Shown here piece by piece: positions 7,917 to 15,075 of a stretch of 64,000 nucleotides of DNA (its first letter is position 1; each line of letters opens with the position of its first letter). A program made the translations under genes and the position numbers. This stretch comes from Oligoflexales bacterium. Lineage in GTDB: Bacteria > Bdellovibrionota_B > Oligoflexia > Oligoflexales > JALZUQ01. Where the stretch lies: NCBI GenBank assembly GCA_023301465.1, contig JALZUQ010000013.1, forward strand, positions 3,286-67,285. The letters run 5' to 3'. The notes beneath the pieces were generated by a model that saw only the letters and a list, made by a program, of their open reading frames with translations, did no database searches and was not told the DNA's origin.

Positions 7917-9731
7917 ATGTGCACTGTGATTGCACTTCTAACAAGCCGACTAGCATATATCCAAATTATTAAACCCGAACAATACATTAAACAAGCGGAT
8001 GCCAATTTCAAATCACGCATCCAAGTAAATGCACCAAGAGGTGTTTTTTATGACAGAAACAATCAAATCATCTTAGGAAACAAAAAAGTATCAAACTTTG
8101 TCTTTTTTCGTCAAAAAAAACTACCTTCGAACGAAATCATTCAAACCGTTGCAGAAACTATAGAAAAACCTATACATTACATTCAATCAAAAATAAAACA
8201 ATCCTACTTACAACCTAAATACATACCAATCGTTATTAAACGTAACTTAAATCTCTCTGAAATTTCTGAAGTTGAAAACAAACTTTCACAAGTGCCGGGG
8301 TTTGAAGTCATGACACAACCTGGGAGGTCTTATAGTAAGGGACAGCCACTTCACATGCTAGGCCACCTTGCAGAAATAAGTCGCACAGAACTTAAAAAAT
8401 CTGAAAACGAAAACTACAGCAGAGGTGATCTTGTAGGAAAAAAAGGGCTTGAAAGAATATTTGAAAAAGAACTTGTTGGAAAAAAAGGACTTAAAGTTGT
8501 CAATGTTGATGCTAGAGGAAGCCTTGTAGACCCAAATCAAAACGAATACTCTAAAAAACCAATCCCCGGACACAATATACACCTCACCATTGATTATGAT
8601 TTACAAAATTTTGTTTTTGAAACTTTCCGGCATAAACGTGGGGCCGTCATTGCGATGGATCCCAGAAATGGAAAAATCCTTGCCATAAAAAGCTCTCCAA
8701 CATATCCTCCTGAGCTTTTTCAATCGCAACTATCAACAAAAGCTTGGAATATTATTGCCAACAACCCTTTTGCTCCATTGATTGATAAGACGATACGTGC
8801 TGAATATCCTCCAGGAAGTTTATATAAAGTAGTGGTAGGACTTGCCGCCCTACAAGAAAACAAAATCAATGAACACACGACCTTTAAATGCACTGGTCAC
8901 TTCAATGTGAATAAAGAAAAATTCCATTGTCATAAACGATCAGGTCATGGAAGGGTCAATCTAAAGCAAGCAATGCGGTACTCATGTGATTCCTTTTTCT
9001 ATCAAATTGGCCTCGAACTAGGAGTCGATAAAATTGCCAGCTATGCAAAAAAGTTTATGCTTGGCAGCTCTTTTGGTATCCGTTTTGGTACAGAAAAAAC
9101 TGGATTAATCCCTACCCGTGAATGGAAATATAAAAAGAAAAAAGTTGCTTGGAAACGCGGAGAAACTTTACCGGTATCTATTGGACAAGGTTTTAACCTC
9201 ACTACCCCACTTCAACTTGTTAATTTATTTTCGAGTATTGCCAACGGGGGAAAGGTATGGAAGCCTTATGTTGTTCAGAGAACCAGCGATTACTATGGAA
9301 AAGTGATCAAGGAGTTTGAGCCTGAATTATTAAGTAATATTAATGATATCAATCCAGAACATTTTGAACTCATAAAAAAATCATTAATTGAGGTAACAAC
9401 CCACCCAAAAGGAACAGGCCGGCTAGCAAAATCATCTATAACAGAAATTGCCGGCAAATCGGGTTCGGTACAAGTCGTAAAGCTTAAGAGGTATGCAAAA
9501 GGCGAACAAGTTAGCATGCTCTGGAAAGAACACGCTATTTTTGCTGGATTCGCACCTGCTAATAACCCCAAAATTACGGTCTTGGTTTTTTCGGAACATG
9601 ACAACTCGGAAGAAGGCGGTGGTAAAGCTGCTGGCCCTATTGTCAAAAACATCATCGAGCACTATCTTTCTATCGAAAACCAAAATGGAGGAAAAAGACT
9701 TGGCGGATATCCAAATCAAAAGTCCGGCTGA
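7917..9731 (+). CDS. mrdA: Penicillin-binding protein 2 (elongasome transpeptidase)
   Basis: 604 aa with a PBP dimerisation domain plus a transpeptidase domain. Active-site motifs are present: PGSLYKVV (SxxK), a SCD element (SxN-type) and KSGSVQ (KSG). The true start may lie upstream of ATG 7917 (see finding). Confidence 0.9.
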   Translation: MCTVIALLTSRLAYIQIIKPEQYIKQADANFKSRIQVNAPRGVFYDRNNQIILGNKKVSNFVFFRQKKLPSNEIIQTVAETIEKPIHYIQSKIKQSYLQPKYIPIVIKRNLNLSEISEVENKLSQVPGFEVMTQPGRSYSKGQPLHMLGHLAEISRTELKKSENENYSRGDLVGKKGLERIFEKELVGKKGLKVVNVDARGSLVDPNQNEYSKKPIPGHNIHLTIDYDLQNFVFETFRHKRGAVIAMDPRNGKILAIKSSPTYPPELFQSQLSTKAWNIIANNPFAPLIDKTIRAEYPPGSLYKVVVGLAALQENKINEHTTFKCTGHFNVNKEKFHCHKRSGHGRVNLKQAMRYSCDSFFYQIGLELGVDKIASYAKKFMLGSSFGIRFGTEKTGLIPTREWKYKKKKVAWKRGETLPVSIGQGFNLTTPLQLVNLFSSIANGGKVWKPYVVQRTSDYYGKVIKEFEPELLSNINDINPEHFELIKKSLIEVTTHPKGTGRLAKSSITEIAGKSGSVQVVKLKRYAKGEQVSMLWKEHAIFAGFAPANNPKITVLVFSEHDNSEEGGGKAAGPIVKNIIEHYLSIENQNGGKRLGGYPNQKSG

Positions 9732-10875: not shown

Positions 10876-11795
10876 ACATGATCACACAAAAGATTCAGTC
10901 ATTAAAAAACCAAACTCTTCCAAGTAGTAAAGATCTAGGCGACAATATCGACTTAAAAAAACACCCTAAAACATATAAAGGGAAAGTTCGAGACATTATC
11001 ATTCATGACGATCATTTAGAAATGCACCATTCTGATAGACTTTCTGCATTTGATAGAGCTATTTGTGATGTACCTTATAAGGGGATCATATTATGTGAAC
11101 TCACTAAATTTTGGTTTGAACATATGGAATCAAAGGGCATACCAACCCACTTGATCTCTCAACCTGGCCCGAGAACTCTCAAAGTAAAAAACTGCACTCC
11201 TTTTAAAATCGAGGTTATTATTCGAGGCTACCTTGCGGGCAGTATGCAACGAGCATACTTAAAAGGTGACAGAGAGATATGTGGCCTTACTATCCCAGAA
11301 GGTTTAAATAAGTTTCAAAAACTCCCAGAACCTCTCATTACCCCAACAACAAAAGCTGCTGTCTATGAGCATGATGAAAACATATCTGAAGAGAACCTAC
11401 TAAAAGAAGGCCTTGCCACTCCTGAGGAATGGAAAACCATTAAAGACATGGCATTAAAGGTTTATGAATACGGCCGTATCCACTGCGAAGAAAAAGGCTG
11501 GATACTTGTAGATACAAAGTATGAATTTGGCAAAACTTCTGATGGAAAAATTGTTATTATTGATGAAGTCCATACACCAGACTCCTCAAGGTTTTGGCAA
11601 AAAGAAACCTATGAGCAAAGACTGAAAGAAGACAAAGAACCTGTGATGTTTGACAAAGAATTTATCCGAAAAGAACTATTAGCAAAAGGTTTTGATGGTC
11701 ATGGTGATGTTCCAGAGATTGAAACAAGCCTCATCTGGGAGCTTGCAAATCGTTATGTTGGAATTACAAATGAGCTTGTAGGTCACTCTATATAG
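10872..11795 (+). CDS. purC: Phosphoribosylaminoimidazole-succinocarboxamide (SAICAR) synthase
   Basis: 307 aa with SDRLSAFD, ILVDTKYEFG and the PDSSRFW motif. The ATGA overlap with the rodA stop and the upstream GAAGGAG indicate translational coupling. Confidence 0.9.
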   Translation: MNMITQKIQSLKNQTLPSSKDLGDNIDLKKHPKTYKGKVRDIIIHDDHLEMHHSDRLSAFDRAICDVPYKGIILCELTKFWFEHMESKGIPTHLISQPGPRTLKVKNCTPFKIEVIIRGYLAGSMQRAYLKGDREICGLTIPEGLNKFQKLPEPLITPTTKAAVYEHDENISEENLLKEGLATPEEWKTIKDMALKVYEYGRIHCEEKGWILVDTKYEFGKTSDGKIVIIDEVHTPDSSRFWQKETYEQRLKEDKEPVMFDKEFIRKELLAKGFDGHGDVPEIETSLIWELANRYVGITNELVGHSI

Positions 11796-11798
11796 TAC

Positions 11799-12839
11799 TT
11801 ATTTTTTTAATGCGTTTTTTAAAATTGTGGCACGTTGAAGAATAAGTTCAATGTGCCTTTTTTGAAAAACAGGTTTTGAAAATATTGCCTCAAGTTTTTT
11901 AAGGCTTAGATTATCAAGACCTTTTAGACTTGGGTTCTCGGTGTAATCTGTCACAGCCACCCTTCTACTACTGATTTTATTTTGAACCCAAATAAAACCA
12001 CGCCACCGCACATAGTTTAACTCTTTATTTGGCATGTAACGTATGTATTTATAAAAAGATAAGATCAAACTCTCAGCCCAATAAGGCGAAAAGACTTCTC
12101 GTAACTCTTCTAAAGTTGGATCGTTTAAAGTTGAAAATTTATCAAAAGGAAAACTATTTAAGCCGTCTAAATTGGTTTTTACATCAACCCAATTGCCTCT
12201 TCTCAAAAATGGAAAGCCACCATACTGTACGTGCTGTATAATACGAATCACCTCAAAATCAAACATGGTCAAACGATTATTTTTATCTACAAGCATATTA
12301 TTTTTATGATTATCATACTGACCTATGACAAAAGAAAATATATTCATGTCACTAAAATCTTTTTTTGAAACCGCCGATTGAATATCACTCAGCGTTGTCT
12401 TTTCACTCATTAGCTTTGGATTGCCTTCTACAAAAAACTGAAGAGTATACCACTTGCCATCAATTTTTCTTTGCACTGTAGGAGGAACTAAATCCAAACC
12501 TAAAAAATTATTTAATTGATATGCCGAAACCTCGGCAACACCCTCTTCATTACCATTATCTCTTTTTACAGCAAACACACCGTTACCCATATCTACAAGG
12601 TAAACATGCGACGCAGCATCGTATTCAAAACCCTTTGATTCTAAATGTTCTTTAAGTGATACCGTTTTTTGTATTTTTGACTTCAATAATACTTGTTCTA
12701 ATTTAAGCTCTGAAAAGTCTTTATGCCAGCGAGATTTTTGTTGGATGGTTTCATTCATTTTATTTTGACAAGTCATAGCAACAACACAGGTAAAGCTTTG
12801 CATAGAGCATAAAAAAATGATTATTTTTAAAGACACCAC
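11799..12839 (-). CDS. Exported PI3K/PI4K-fold (HipA-related) kinase-like protein
   Basis: 346 aa with a hydrophobic N-terminus (IIIFLCSMQSFTCVVA). GVFAVKRDN...EVSAYQLNNFLGLDLVPPTV...LQFFVEG resembles the nucleotide-binding lobe. GQYDNHKNNMLVDKNNRLTMFDFE resembles the G-x-x-D-R-H-x-x-N ... x-D-F-G catalytic and activation segments. Confidence 0.45.
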   Translation of the reverse strand: MVSLKIIIFLCSMQSFTCVVAMTCQNKMNETIQQKSRWHKDFSELKLEQVLLKSKIQKTVSLKEHLESKGFEYDAASHVYLVDMGNGVFAVKRDNGNEEGVAEVSAYQLNNFLGLDLVPPTVQRKIDGKWYTLQFFVEGNPKLMSEKTTLSDIQSAVSKKDFSDMNIFSFVIGQYDNHKNNMLVDKNNRLTMFDFEVIRIIQHVQYGGFPFLRRGNWVDVKTNLDGLNSFPFDKFSTLNDPTLEELREVFSPYWAESLILSFYKYIRYMPNKELNYVRWRGFIWVQNKISSRRVAVTDYTENPSLKGLDNLSLKKLEAIFSKPVFQKRHIELILQRATILKNALKK

Positions 12840-13002
12840 AACTCCAAGTCTTAATTTTGCTGGTTTATCTCATCAAAAAAAGACTCTGTCGAATAATTTC
12901 AGTTAACTAACTAAGTTCATTAGTAATTAAATTTAATATTTTTTGTATACGAAGCCCACATAATATTGGTACTGAAAACGAAATCTTAAATGGAGCCTTC
13001 TG

Positions 13003-13233
13003 ATGAAAACCTTACTTACGATACTATTAACCTTTTTCGCACTACTTGCATTTAACAGTTGTGGTGATGACGAAATGTCATCGAGCAGTTTTTCATCTTC
13101 ATGTTGTTTAAACGGTCAATTTTATGATTGCCCTACTTCAGCAGCAATGGATACATGTAATTTTATTGACTCTGGATCAGAGTGTACCAGAACCCCATCA
13201 AAAGATAACTCTTGTGAAAGCCTTATTTTTTAG
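13003..13233 (+). CDS. Small Cys-rich lipoprotein (76 aa)
   Basis: GGAG Shine-Dalgarno upstream and a signal peptide with lipobox LAFNSC. The mature ~57-aa peptide has 7 Cys and a Ser-rich stretch. Confidence 0.5.
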   Translation: MKTLLTILLTFFALLAFNSCGDDEMSSSSFSSSCCLNGQFYDCPTSAAMDTCNFIDSGSECTRTPSKDNSCESLIF

Positions 13234-13244
13234 AAAACCTCCAC

Positions 13245-13616
13245 GTGAATACTTTTCTAGTTTTACACATCGTCACCATCACACCATGTCTTGTTATTGG
13301 TCCTTTTATTCTTTTTAGAATTAAAGGAGACCGGTTTCACAAAATATTAGGAAGAACATGGGCTACACTGATGCTGATCAGTTGCATACTTTCTTTTGGG
13401 GTTCGCTCAGAAGAAAACCTCACTTGGCTTCACGGCTTAGCTGCTTTTACGATTTACCAATTACTCAAAGGTATTTGTAATGCACGCAATCACAATATGA
13501 ATGGCCATAGAAGAAACATGGTCGGCTCATACATCAGAAGCTTAGTTGCTTTTATCTTTACACTACAACCAACTCGATTCATTGGCGGTCAACTGTTTAA
13601 ACTATTTGGTTTTTGA
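13245..13616 (+). CDS. Small polytopic membrane protein (DUF2306-like pattern)
   Basis: 123 aa with a GTG start and 3-4 predicted TM helices. LHIVTITPCLVIGPFILFR...HKILGRTW resembles the DUF2306 N-terminal signature. Confidence 0.4.
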   Translation: MNTFLVLHIVTITPCLVIGPFILFRIKGDRFHKILGRTWATLMLISCILSFGVRSEENLTWLHGLAAFTIYQLLKGICNARNHNMNGHRRNMVGSYIRSLVAFIFTLQPTRFIGGQLFKLFGF

Positions 13617-13716
13617 ATACCGTAAAACCATTGCCAGCCCATTACTTAGTCAATTAAAGTGTGTTTTACTCGTATCTATTGCTAAATTGACCCTCCACTG
13701 CTATCAAACAACCCAA

Positions 13717-13737
13717 TTGAGAATGATTATCAATAAA
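13717..13737 (+). promoter_or_regulatory. Candidate Fur-family operator
   Basis: TTGAGAATGATTATCAATAAA is an imperfect palindrome (14/17 self-complementary). It matches 14 of 19 positions of the E. coli Fur consensus GATAATGATAATCATTATC. It ends 10 nt upstream of the ATG of a His-rich exported protein. The AT-rich background raises the chance of a random match. Confidence 0.25.
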
Positions 13738-13746
13738 GGTTACTCC

Positions 13747-15075
13747 ATGAAAACAAAACTTAACGCACTCGTCTTTATTTTGAGCTTAATACTAACTATG
13801 ACGACCCCAGCCGAAAATACATACGCACACGGAGACCATGACCACGATGAACACAAAGAAGAGATGCTTATTAGCTATCTTTCTGGTGCAAGCAGTCAAA
13901 TCCAAGAAGTCCAAAACAACTCTCTGTTAAGCCCCAAAGAAAAAATGTTGATGGCAACAGAAATTCTCATCGACTCACTTCCCCAAGCTCACGAGCATGC
14001 GTGCTCTGGAAATTGCAAAGATAAAAAAGCCGTGGGCTTTAAGGGTTCTTTAGCTAAATTTGGAAAATTTATTATCCAACTACCAAAAGCAGCTAGAAAA
14101 TCTATTGCTACTGGACTTAAAGGAGCTCTTGATTTTGCTGTAGAACCTAACATGTTTGGTAAAGTCGAACATATAATCACCTCACTAAAAAGAAAAGGCC
14201 ATACTAGAGTTGCAGAGCTTTGGCATCGTCATGGAATGATCTCAACCTTCTTTGTTGCAACCATCATTGGGGTTACTTACTTTCCTTACACAATCGTTAC
14301 TGAGTTTGCTGAGTCTTTAGTTTTAGGCCCTGCTCATGTTTGGTGTACTTTCTTTCAGATGCAATACTTGATGGGAGTCACATACTCTTTAAAATACATT
14401 GATACATTTGCTCTCATCATAAATTACCTTGTCAAAAAAAGGTTGAAGTCGCCTTATCATTTCCTCGATAACTCGTTGAACCTAACATTCATCGACCTAG
14501 AATTAAAGATAGCCCTTGAAGTCAGCCAAGAAACCCAAGCAAAGCAAGTTCAAAAAATTGCAGATATATCGAATGATTTTATTAGTTTAAAAACAAAACC
14601 ATTTCTCAAAAAAATTGCAATTCATACAAAGGATATCAATCAAAAAAAAATAATCAGAAAATTTCGAGAATTTTTTGATTCACAAATTATCATGGCAAGA
14701 CTTTGGCACGACAACTTAATGTTTATGGGTGAGTCCTTAAGGGAGTTAGTACAAATTCGATATAATGAAGCCATTCATGAAGCCGAAGAACACGTTTTGC
14801 AAACTGTATCTGAAAAAGACATTGATACTGTATTCAGAAAATCTCTTGCAATGGTCAACAAAAGACTGAGAATTATACGAAAACATTATTCTGATTGGGA
14901 AGCATCAGGCAAAGATGATCTACAAAAACGTGAAAAAATTGAAAAAGATTTTATTGAGTTCATAAGAGTAATGACAAATCATGAACCAGATGTCTTTGAC
15001 TTAGACATGTCATTTCAAAACTTTATTGAATTAAGAGACATCGATAAAAAATTGAGTTGCCAATCTGGTTTCTAG
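13747..15075 (+). CDS. Exported His-rich (HGDHDHDEH) membrane-associated protein of unknown function
   Basis: I take ATG 13747 (MKTKLNALVFILSLILTMTTPAENTYA, a signal peptide) as the start. The track start 13546 overlaps the upstream gene. The mature N-terminus is an acidic His cluster, and central hydrophobic helices are present. Confidence 0.5.
   Translation: MKTKLNALVFILSLILTMTTPAENTYAHGDHDHDEHKEEMLISYLSGASSQIQEVQNNSLLSPKEKMLMATEILIDSLPQAHEHACSGNCKDKKAVGFKGSLAKFGKFIIQLPKAARKSIATGLKGALDFAVEPNMFGKVEHIITSLKRKGHTRVAELWHRHGMISTFFVATIIGVTYFPYTIVTEFAESLVLGPAHVWCTFFQMQYLMGVTYSLKYIDTFALIINYLVKKRLKSPYHFLDNSLNLTFIDLELKIALEVSQETQAKQVQKIADISNDFISLKTKPFLKKIAIHTKDINQKKIIRKFREFFDSQIIMARLWHDNLMFMGESLRELVQIRYNEAIHEAEEHVLQTVSEKDIDTVFRKSLAMVNKRLRIIRKHYSDWEASGKDDLQKREKIEKDFIEFIRVMTNHEPDVFDLDMSFQNFIELRDIDKKLSCQSGF

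Follow-up and report, generated by a model that had tools for sequence, protein, structure and literature searches.

An atypical kinase-like protein with a predicted export signal represents a large, unnamed bacterial family related to SCO1664-type proteins and FAM20 kinases

Can a bacterial gene that appears to join an export signal to a kinase core encode an enzyme that phosphorylates targets outside the cytoplasm? Animals are well known to phosphorylate targets outside the cytoplasm, by means of FAM20C and kinases related to it. We know of essentially no dedicated exported kinase in bacteria, in part because the periplasm is thought to be without ATP. The question is raised by one open reading frame (ORF) in the window, by which we mean the whole 64-kb stretch of DNA that was analysed. 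We judge it probable that this gene's product is a phosphotransferase, exported through the Sec system and probably active as a catalyst, from a large unnamed bacterial family that falls within the protein-kinase-like fold on its PI3K/PI4K-FAM20-SCO1664 branch. The combination of a predicted signal peptide, a kinase fold and kinship to FAM20 makes the protein a candidate kinase for targets beyond the bacterial cytoplasm.

The ORF list gives a frame of 346 amino acids with a GTG start on the minus strand, and the gene is present as a single copy within the window.

11799..12839, minus strand: coding sequence of the predicted exported, atypical kinase-like protein, 346 aa, with its stop codon at 11799-11801

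Because a syntenic orthologue (P0002) is 58% identical to the product, we consider the ORF to be a real gene. All motif strings quoted in a preliminary description of this DNA are present in the translation, namely IIIFLCSMQSFTCVVA (residues 6-21), GVFAVKRDN (87-95), EVSAYQLNNFLGLDLVPPTV (103-122), LQFFVEG (133-139) and FVIGQYDNHKNNMLVDKNNRLTMFDFE (170-196); the spacer from RDN to EVSAY is 7 residues, not the 8 given there.

Searched alone, the protein passes no curated family threshold in Pfam or NCBIfam. Pfam returned only ABC1 and DUF6493, both sub-threshold, NCBIfam returned TIGR03843 at 15 bits (E 0.011, residues 103-154 only), and phmmer against PDB sequences gave nothing relevant. The DUF6493 match (E 0.0037) was found with the window protein only and was dismissed because no other family member matches that model. 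A word-indexed protein search yielded only 3 relatives. An exhaustive profile search produced 681 matches at E<=1e-3. The stricter threshold of E<=1e-10 is passed by 242, and these roughly 240 cluster representatives are all unnamed. When a family HMM was built without the window protein and its two closest relatives, it matched the window protein with 285 bits over residues 6-344. The family alignment holds 125 homologues with 21-34% identity to the window protein, among which E103, Y107, P119, P120, T121, Q134, G173, D176, N181 and D194 are each at least 90% conserved, and the quoted motifs thus appear not to be chance resemblances. In the literature searched, neither this family nor any exported FAM20-like kinase of bacteria is described. 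Given that the family is unnamed in all sources searched, even a basic activity assay would provide new information.

A structure predicted by AF2 with the 125-sequence alignment reached a pLDDT of 93 and a pTM of 0.87 (pLDDT 40 with a 3-sequence alignment). Its elements run beta-beta-beta-alphaC-beta-beta-hinge-helices-catalytic loop-beta-beta-D, which is the protein kinase order. Foldseek against the PDB returned kinases only (probability 0.8-1.0), headed by Helicobacter pylori CtkA (JHP0940; 3akk, E 1.1e-4, TMt 0.43), HipA (3dnv, E 7e-4) and FAM20C (E 1e-3, TM 0.40/0.36), with RIPK1, RNase L, Vps34 and PI3K (p110) among the further matches; TM-scores are low throughout, at 0.36-0.43. The protein has the canonical element order of the PKL fold superfamily together with E103, D176, N181 and D194, and its beta3 Lys is replaced by R93. 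The core had been described as being of PI3K/PI4K type, with similarity to PI3/4K or HipA folds expected, and the predicted structure, the Foldseek matches and the family profile bear this out, as does PF00454, which members match more often than any other Pfam family (16/125 at E<=0.01, 25/125 at E<=1, best 8.6e-8).

The closest named bacterial family is TIGR03843/SCO1664, the actinobacterial PI3/4-kinase-like proteins, and this proposed relation also held. Its model is matched by 84 of the 125 members (best 2.6e-10), hhalign aligns the two families over residues 46-215 (99.4%, E 1e-21), and the predicted pattern K..E..LG..VPPTV..Q.FV falls in register. SCO1664-type proteins share AVYKP, RE.AAY..S..LG..LVPPTV, GS.Q.FV and DR..G(H/N) with the family. 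At 15 bits the window protein lies below the TIGR03843 cutoff of 172.4 bits, and homology is clear at the profile level. SCO1664-type proteins measure 230-260 aa and have no signal peptide, whereas the window protein has 346 aa and a hydrophobic N-terminus. They are also without the insert at residues 200-300 and the C-terminal RRDQ helix, and have K-x-G-H where the family has x-x-G-N.

Among PI3K and PI4K enzymes in the PDB, the family profile reaches PI3K-alpha (2.8e-3) and PI4K2-beta (4e-3); PF00454 did not match the window protein even at E<=10. Both groups have a G-x-x-D-[RN]-H-x-x-N loop with a metal-binding Asp 12 residues on. Against the motif G-x-x-D-R-H-x-x-N...DFG, the window protein fits in spacing, with Asn for the Arg and Glu for the final Gly, and the family consensus reads GQWD(R)H.GN ... 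IDN. Unlike PI3K/PI4K, the window protein lacks accessory helical and C2 domains and is predicted to be exported, and no lipid-binding elements were identified in it.

The suggested relation to HipA stands at the level of fold (the 3dnv match) and fails at the level of sequence, since neither HipA nor CtkA gave a match in the Pfam and PDB sequence searches. HipA has the register D-x-H-x-K-N where the window protein has D-N-H-K-N-N, and no HipB-like partner gene lies near the window gene, next to which are purC and a gene for a small lipoprotein-like product. Membership in the HipA family was rejected because it has no sequence support. A set of shorter, unnamed and uncharacterised exported relatives of about 275 aa (P0163-P0177) aligns to the family in hhalign (99.85%, E 1e-30). 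These proteins have signal peptides, a kinase core, and the same helices at the N-terminus and at the C-terminus (RRD), and they too resemble FAM20 (FAM20A 3e-10), but are without the approximately 85-residue C-lobe insert (residues about 216-300).

The kinase domain has the following elements, all on the minus strand.

12420..12728: kinase N-lobe, residues 38-140, from AF2 secondary structure (pLDDT >90) and from profile alignments with FAM20 and TIGR03843-type proteins
12561..12566: K92-R93 in beta3, placed identically by MAFFT and HMM alignments
12531..12533: E103, the alphaC glutamate (AEVSAY), Glu in 118/125 members and aligned to the Glu of FAM20 AEIAAF
12297..12323: catalytic loop G173-QY-D176-N-H178-KN-N181, with Gly in 123/125, Asp in 121/125 and Asn in 122/125
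12252..12263: F193-D194-F195-E196, the DFG equivalent with the metal-binding Asp, Asp in 122/125
11940..12242: family-specific C-lobe insert, residues about 200-300, with motifs QxVxYGxFPF, FPFD and YxxW..W.Q
11802..11939: C-terminal helices, residues 301-346, with a near-invariant R336 (Arg in 116/125)

In the AF2 model the N-lobe consists of an N-terminal helix, beta1-beta3, alphaC, beta4-beta5 and the hinge LQFFVEG. The catalytic loop aligns to GNMDRHHYE of FAM20 and NNADRKsGH of TIGR03843. At the DFG equivalent most of the family has I-D-N (L-D-N in FAM20), and the subclade of the window protein has D-F. The C-lobe insert is conserved within the family and modelled with pLDDT >90, and the C-terminal helices are common to the 275-aa exported relatives by hhalign. 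Only one Cys (C24) is left after removal of the predicted signal peptide, and the family alignment shows no conserved Cys column.

One earlier assignment in this region has to be revised. The Lys of GVFAVK, K92, is not in the invariant Lys column; by both MAFFT and HMM alignment the ATP-binding column is occupied by R93, where 115 of the 125 members (92%) have Lys, and K92 should face away from the active site by strand alternation. In canonical kinases, a change of the beta3 Lys to Arg usually abolishes activity. We weighed the reading that the product is an exported protein with a kinase fold that does not act as a conventional ATP-dependent kinase, being instead a pseudokinase or nucleotide-binding scaffold such as FAM20A, a catalyst of another reaction such as AMPylation by SelO, or a user of another phosphoryl donor. 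With another chemistry or donor, the scarcity of extracytoplasmic ATP would be no obstacle. The window protein shares the Arg with eight relatives, the best PDB sequence match of the family is the pseudokinase FAM20A, and losses of D176 or D194 in P0008, P0012, P0013 and P0097 indicate that the family tolerates inactive forms. SelO and SidJ are precedents for kinase-fold enzymes with other chemistries (cited in PMC7948968). Nevertheless, E103, D176, N181 and D194 are all kept in eight of the nine members of the Arg subclade, the window protein included, and this retention argues for selection on catalysis. The Arg itself is conserved in the subclade and not random, and the complete pentad K/E/D/N/D (R-E-D-N-D in the window protein) occurs in 102 of 124 members. 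We regard this alternative as unlikely, though it is the most serious of those considered.

Under the preferred reading of an exported phosphotransferase, translation would begin at the GTG pair 12839/12836, and the signal peptide (residues 1-21) would carry the protein over the inner membrane and be cut after VVA. [quoted passage not shown] In the N-lobe, which has LQFFVEG as its hinge, R93 of beta3 would pair with E103 of alphaC, and we infer that catalysis can proceed with Arg in this position. In the C-lobe, D176 would serve as catalytic base and N181 and D194 as metal ligands, and phosphate would pass to a hydroxyl group of an extracytoplasmic target. By analogy with FAM20, the substrate would be a protein Ser/Thr or a glycan.

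A large, conserved family that combines signal peptides with an intact kinase active site would raise the questions of what is phosphorylated and where the nucleotide comes from. According to the general view, the periplasm of Gram-negative bacteria contains no ATP, which leaves the site of action unexplained. Given the Bdellovibrionota-like genome, the most plausible place to find ATP would be inside a host or prey cell, or in what leaks from it. In a stronger form of this idea, the signal peptide would serve the first of two secretion steps and the kinase would act within another, ATP-rich cell, as CtkA of H. pylori and the PI-kinase effectors of Legionella do. The top structural match is this same CtkA, a secreted bacterial kinase (called a proinflammatory kinase in its PDB title). 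Fusions to eukaryote-type modules, an F-box in P0143 and Skp1_POZ in P0146, hint that some members may act inside eukaryotic cells, although the contigs of these fusion proteins are too short for organism assignment. The PBP2 encoded by the window genome is nearest to those of metagenome-assembled genomes (MAGs) of Oligoflexales and Bdellovibrionota, and one family member occurs in a MAG of the Bdellovibrionota, a phylum that includes predators; other members occur in Vulcanimicrobiota/Eremiobacterota MAGs, for which neither predation nor pathogenicity is known. Moreover, the window gene lies in housekeeping surroundings (mreBC-PBP2-rodA-purC ... tauE-rpoZ), where the GC content is host-like (about 36-38%) and no secretion-system genes adjoin it. 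We consider an effector role improbable on present indications, and it is a refinement of the preferred reading, not an exclusive alternative to it.

Gene neighbourhood was rejected as a clue to function or substrate because nothing is conserved across the loci compared (L001, L003, L004, L005, L006 and L007). In L006 and L007, a gene for a GH38 alpha-mannosidase overlaps the kinase gene; the mannosidase lacks a signal peptide, so it gives no hint that the two proteins work in one compartment. A scan of the genome collection with a 12-sequence alignment returned only 2 loci, and the taxonomic spread is consequently poorly sampled. A phage or plasmid origin was also rejected, with no phage match and plasmid matches only to Micrococcus SCO1664-type fragments, and no Rfam elements were found in the window.

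Export of the protein is predicted from its N-terminus and from the region that precedes it, again on the minus strand.

12777..12839: predicted Sec signal peptide, residues 1-21 (MVSLK followed by IIIFLCSMQSFTCVVA), from hydrophobicity, P0002 and the family trend
12842..12845: GGAG Shine-Dalgarno (SD)-like site read from the sequence, 2 nt 5' of the GTG at 12839
12960..12989: sigma-70-like promoter match TTAAGA-18-TATTAT from a consensus scan, in a 163-nt divergent intergenic region

The promoter match is weak because such matches are fewer in the scan than in shuffled sequence. Export was judged by heuristics of hydrophobicity and charge. The N-terminus of the window protein reaches a top 10-aa Kyte-Doolittle (KD) value of 2.59 and, by eye and presupposing the GTG start, consists of MVSLK, a 16-residue h-region and V-V-A, with likely cleavage after A21. 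A classic signal peptide occupies the equivalent place in P0002. In 105 of 117 family members, a 10-aa segment with KD>=2.0 lies in the pre-domain (median 32 aa), compared with 14/117 for the rest of the protein. Among these 105, the n-region has a net charge of at least +1 in 87, and in 82 the positive charge on the N side of the segment exceeds that on the C side, an N-in/C-out bias. SCO1664-type relatives, which are cytoplasmic, have hydrophilic N-termini and no strongly hydrophobic segment. The claim of an export-type N-terminus is thus upheld as far as prediction goes, and export as a family trait is supported by the family-wide signal-like segment. For the window protein itself, the charges (+1 ahead of the hydrophobic core, +2 over the 15 residues behind it) give an ambiguous balance, less clear than that of most relatives, and export would depend on the GTG start. 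A lipoprotein was rejected, as neither A-M-T-C24 nor the G-T-P-C of P0002 fits a lipobox.

Public annotation (P0001) instead gives a 334-aa product that starts at an ATG at M13 (12803), which would cut into the hydrophobic segment. The GGAG at 12845-12842 also lies 5 nt upstream of a second GTG at 12836, and no SD-like site was seen in the sequence upstream of the ATG, which speaks against a mis-called start and supports the long form from the GTG pair. We find it very improbable that the product is a cytoplasmic SCO1664-like kinase starting at M13, as the public gene call and the indecisive charge distribution would allow, because besides the SD evidence P0002 and about 90% of members have a full signal-like segment directly before the first conserved column, and the genuinely cytoplasmic TIGR03843-type relatives do not have hydrophobic N-termini.

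By profile comparison, the closest experimentally studied relatives are the FAM20 kinases of the secretory pathway, rather than HipA. FAM20C is the Golgi casein kinase, FAM20B a xylosylkinase and FAM20A a pseudokinase. The family profile reaches the PDB sequences of FAM20A (8e-8), FAM20C (4.8e-6), Caenorhabditis elegans Fam20 (1.4e-5) and FAM20B (2.3e-4), which indicates homology and not membership; PF06702 (FAM20) does not match the window protein and matches 3/125 members at E<1 (best 0.041). Collinear matches cover beta3 (AVFKP), alphaC-beta4 (AE[IV]AA[FY]..L...VPPTV), beta5 (GS.Q.F), the catalytic loop (F.F..G..DRH) and then [IL]DN. Both FAM20 and the family have an N-terminal signal to a luminal or extracytoplasmic compartment, as predicted heuristically for the family. 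The window protein differs in being shorter (about 325 aa mature), in its C-lobe insert, in having DNHKNN for DRHHYE and D-F for D-N, and in the Arg at the beta3 Lys; FAM20 has conserved disulfides and the family none. Against FAM20, the two exported bacterial families (8e-8 and 3e-10) score much better than the cytoplasmic SCO1664-type proteins (6e-4). We tentatively propose, as a possibility more doubtful than the preferred reading itself, that these two families are 'secretory kinases', Sec-exported and phosphorylating envelope, extracellular, prey or host targets, and that they form the prokaryotic sister group, and possibly the source, of the animal FAM20/Four-jointed kinases. An exported bacterial family would provide a bacterial outgroup for the origin of FAM20 kinases. 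FAM20 has been called Metazoa-specific (PMC9758233), and the family described here is bacterial; a 2026 preprint lists FAM20B among possible contributions of Myxococcota to eukaryotes.

An ORF with a GTG start encodes a 346-amino-acid protein at window positions 11799 to 12839 on the minus strand. The preliminary description proposed an exported protein with a PI3K/PI4K-type (HipA-related) kinase core, and this interpretation is supported with several refinements: the minus strand had to be added, FAM20 takes the place of HipA as the closest studied relative, an Arg occupies the catalytic Lys position, and export depends on use of the GTG start. Every string quoted in that description is found in the ORF, namely the hydrophobic N-terminus (residues 6-21), GVFAVKRDN, EVSAYQLNNFLGLDLVPPTV, LQFFVEG and FVIGQYDNHKNNMLVDKNNRLTMFDFE.

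The gene is single-copy within the window, and a 58% identical orthologue (P0002) occupies the same neighbourhood on another metagenomic contig, where rpoZ-tauE, rodA-PBP2-mreC-mreB and an exported neighbour of 442 amino acids are likewise present. Judged from these sequence comparisons, the gene is real and conserved. A word-indexed protein search recovered just three relatives; an exhaustive profile search recovered 681 cluster representatives at E<=1e-3, of which 242 pass E<=1e-10 and 25 pass E<=1e-30; most are 320-370 amino acids long, and their only name is ‘hypothetical protein’. A family HMM from which the window protein was left out together with the two sequences closest to it gives the window protein 285 bits over residues 6-344.

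When searched alone, the window protein matches nothing above threshold in Pfam (ABC1, E 0.053; DUF6493, E 0.0037), reaches NCBIfam TIGR03843 only below threshold (E 0.011, 15 bits), and has no relevant match among PDB sequences. An AF2 model from a three-sequence alignment has a pLDDT of 40, and one from a 125-sequence family alignment (A2) has a pLDDT of 93 and a pTM of 0.87. The N-lobe of the latter model comprises three strands (the third ending at residue 93), a long helix (96-112) and two strands (121-135) leading to a hinge, after which two helices run into the G173-N181 loop, followed by two short strands and D194. This predicted order of elements is that of protein kinases, and a Foldseek search of the PDB with the model returned kinases only.

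Foldseek matches of the AF2 model
H. pylori CtkA: E 1.1e-4, TM-score 0.37 / 0.43
RNase L kinase domain: E 6.3e-4, TM-score 0.28 / 0.16
RIPK1: E 6.3e-4, TM-score 0.32 / 0.37
HipA (3dnv): E 7e-4, TM-score 0.33 / 0.29
FAM20C (5yh3_C): E 1e-3, TM-score 0.40 / 0.36
Vps34 and p110: E 1e-3 to 1.4e-3, TM-score 0.25-0.30 (query-normalised)

We regard the modelled kinase fold class as secure; the TM-scores are low, and none of the solved structures would serve as a close template.

Placement within this fold relied on three independent profile tests, which agree. Among family members compared with Pfam, PI3_PI4_kinase is the most frequent match (16 of 125 at E<=0.01, best 8.6e-8; 25 of 125 at E<=1), followed by ABC1 and then Fam20C (3 of 125), and together with the fold results this bears out the proposed PI3K/PI4K-type core. 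TIGR03843, the SCO1664 family, is matched by 84 of the 125 members in NCBIfam (best 2.6e-10), and an hhalign comparison of A2 with aligned TIGR03843-type proteins reaches 99.4% (E 1e-21, residues 46-215), showing the K..E..LG..VPPTV..Q.FV pattern by which this relation had been recognized. When the A2 profile is compared with all PDB sequences, the FAM20 family ranks first, and its matches are collinear over five to six motifs. The suggested HipA relation holds only as a fold match; by sequence, FAM20 is the closest studied relative.

Matches of the A2 profile to PDB sequences
FAM20A: E 8e-8
FAM20C: E 4.8e-6
C. elegans Fam20: E 1.4e-5
Zebrafish Fam20C: E 6.3e-5
FAM20B: E 2.3e-4
PI3K-alpha: E about 3e-3
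PI4K2-beta: E 4e-3

Motifs of the window family compared with those of FAM20
beta3: AVFKP; FAM20, [AL][VL]FKP
alphaC: aEvaAYrasrfL; FAM20, AEIAAFHLDRIL
beta4: VPPTV in both
beta5: GsLQlFV; FAM20, GSVQVFL
Catalytic loop: FyFvfGqwDrH; FAM20, FDFLIGNMDRH
DFG-equivalent: IDN; FAM20, LDN

By bit score, TIGR03843-type proteins (45-63) are closer to the window family than FAM20 (25-35) or PI3K/PI4K2 (about 19-20). Closer still (hhalign 99.85%, E 1e-30) is a second family of about 275 amino acids (P0163-P0177), which lacks residues corresponding to about 216-300 of the window family; its members are unnamed, signal-peptide-bearing and kinase-like, with one example in an Aminicenantes MAG. FAM20 is matched much more strongly by the two bacterial families with signal peptides (8e-8 for the window family and 3e-10, to FAM20A, for the shorter one) than by the cytoplasmic TIGR03843-type proteins (6e-4). 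The family profile also matches P0185 (6e-10), a 478-amino-acid protein of the green alga Chloropicon primus annotated as PI3K/PI4K catalytic domain-containing, and therefore eukaryotic relatives besides FAM20 exist.

The window protein is like a member of a PI3/4K-FAM20-SCO1664 branch. Given that it falls below every curated family threshold, it should be kept out of PF00454, TIGR03843, PF06702 and HipA, and we assign it to an uncharacterised bacterial family of kinase fold that is predicted to be exported. Searches of the literature turned up neither this family nor any exported bacterial kinase of FAM20 type. In a pan-kinome survey of Legionella, FAM20 is regarded as specific to Metazoa, and four small Legionella families cluster near FAM20/CotH (PMC9758233). 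FAM20B is listed in a 2026 preprint as one of the eukaryotic genes that may derive from Myxococcota, and thus relatives of FAM20 in bacteria have already been noticed but are uncharacterised.

The catalytic positions are strongly conserved in the 125-sequence alignment: the beta3 Lys column holds K in 115 sequences and R in 9, and E103 of alphaC is conserved in 118, G173 in 123, D176 in 121, N181 in 122 and D194 in 122. The full K-E-D-N-D set is present in 102 of 124 members, and the window protein has R-E-D-N-D. Aligned without gaps, VYLVDMGNGVFAVKR and VxLVxLxxGxKAVFK put R93 rather than K92 at the Lys position, and this placement is the same in the MAFFT and HMMER alignments, with high posterior probability. 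By the strand alternation established for the kinase A-x-K motif, V91 and R93 should face the nucleotide site and K92 should point away from it.

We consider it reasonably likely that the window protein is a Sec-exported phosphotransferase. In this reading the phosphates of the nucleotide would be positioned by R93 and E103, the base would be D176, and metal binding would fall to N181 and D194. FAM20C/B and PI4K2, taken as analogues, suggest that the phosphoryl group could be accepted by Ser/Thr of a protein, a hydroxyl of a glycan or the head group of a lipid. Catalytic competence is not rated higher mainly because of the Arg in the Lys column, given that a K-to-R change is normally inactivating in canonical kinases. 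An exported pseudokinase, or a protein with an alternative chemistry, is considerably less likely. The Arg is shared with eight other members, which by sequence form a coherent subclade with the window protein; these largely show D-F, not D-N, following the metal-binding Asp, and their catalytic loops largely read G[RQ][YF]DNH. The remaining four catalytic residues are retained in eight of the nine.

If the lineage is of a predatory type, the prey compartment would be the likeliest place for an exported phosphotransferase to find ATP. Window PBP2 (7917-9731, plus strand) has at most 45% identity to any of 5.8 billion proteins, its own record excepted, and therefore the window comes from a poorly sampled, deep-branching lineage. 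The nearest named relatives of this PBP2 are in Oligoflexales and Bdellovibrionota MAGs, and the genome is probably Bdellovibrionota-like, a weak assignment. One kinase family member comes from a Bdellovibrionota MAG and others come from Vulcanimicrobiota/Eremiobacterota MAGs. Injection of the protein into host or prey as an effector, a refinement of the exported phosphotransferase reading, is in our judgement quite improbable. Some longer members carry an F-box (P0143) or, after the signal peptide, Skp1_POZ (P0146), and P0132 joins the kinase-domain homologue to a cytidylyltransferase-like domain; these fusions may be eukaryote-directed effectors or bifunctional enzymes, a hint that part of the family works inside eukaryotic cells.

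No neighbour gene is conserved among the six loci examined. On two related contigs (L006, 2825-6981; L007, 2888-7014), an apparent operon places the kinase homologue behind a GH38 alpha-mannosidase gene whose stop codon it overlaps; this mannosidase has no signal peptide. A gene for SelO, an AMPylating pseudokinase, lies about 400 bp downstream of the homologue in L007.

Export was assessed in 117 members by scanning the residues before the first conserved domain column (W38; median 32 residues) for 10-residue windows with a mean Kyte-Doolittle value of at least 2.0. Such a window precedes the domain in 105 members and occurs elsewhere in the protein in just 14 of 117. In these 105 members, a short stretch (median 4 amino acids) of positive charge, +1 net or more in 87 of them, leads into an uncharged hydrophobic core of median length 19 residues, and the 15 residues that come next are acidic on average; 82 have a more positive charge on the N side than on the C side. 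Many members carry A-x-A sites directly before the domain (...PAIA/APW, ...LLHA/QPSW, ...PAFA/ERWP). TIGR03843-type relatives, unlike this family, have hydrophilic N-termini. In the window protein, the predicted n-region is MVSLK, the predicted h-region is IIIFLCSMQSFTCVVA and positions -3/-1 would be V/A, with no lipobox at the N-terminus; the 15 residues after the h-region have a net charge of +2, and the signal is less clean than that of the family. In many A2 members a lone Cys follows the predicted cleavage site by a few residues, often in C-x-x-[LIVF]-F. The equivalent C24 is the sole Cys of the mature window protein, and this residue could be a site of intermolecular disulfide formation or modification.

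The export proposed in the preliminary description is supported by signal-like segments across the family, and for the window protein it would depend on the GTG start. Public gene calls begin the protein at M13 (P0001, 334 amino acids). We take the long form as correct because GGAG (12845-12842) lies directly upstream of a GTG pair (12839 and 12836), no comparable site precedes the ATG, and P0002 has a full signal peptide aligned with this N-terminus; a cytoplasmic protein starting at M13 is very improbable.

GC content around the kinase gene (36-38%) is similar to that of the remainder of the window, and an Rfam search of the whole 64 kb found nothing. The gene is convergent with purC (ending at 11795), with stop codons just 3 nt apart, and is separated by 163 nt from the first of the following divergent ORFs.

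Features beyond the start of the kinase gene
13003-13233, plus strand: small lipoprotein-like ORF of 76 amino acids, with a lipoprotein-type signal (LLAFNS-C) and a Ser-/Cys-rich mature peptide with many cysteines; no Pfam match
13245-13616, plus strand: DUF2306 predicted membrane protein (E 1e-11)
13546-15075, plus strand: exported or membrane protein of about 442 amino acids, likely starting near 13747 (MKTKLNALVF...); listed from 13546 as 509 amino acids

The DUF2306 ORF overlaps the upstream part of the 509-amino-acid ORF, and therefore the start of the latter is probably over-extended. The protein of about 442 amino acids matches no Pfam family, carries a metal-binding-like HGDHDHDEH motif immediately after its signal peptide, and is conserved at the same position in the orthologous locus with 34% identity. 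A terminator-like hairpin and T-run for the convergent purC gene lie at 11829-11857 (plus strand), inside the 3' part of the kinase coding sequence.
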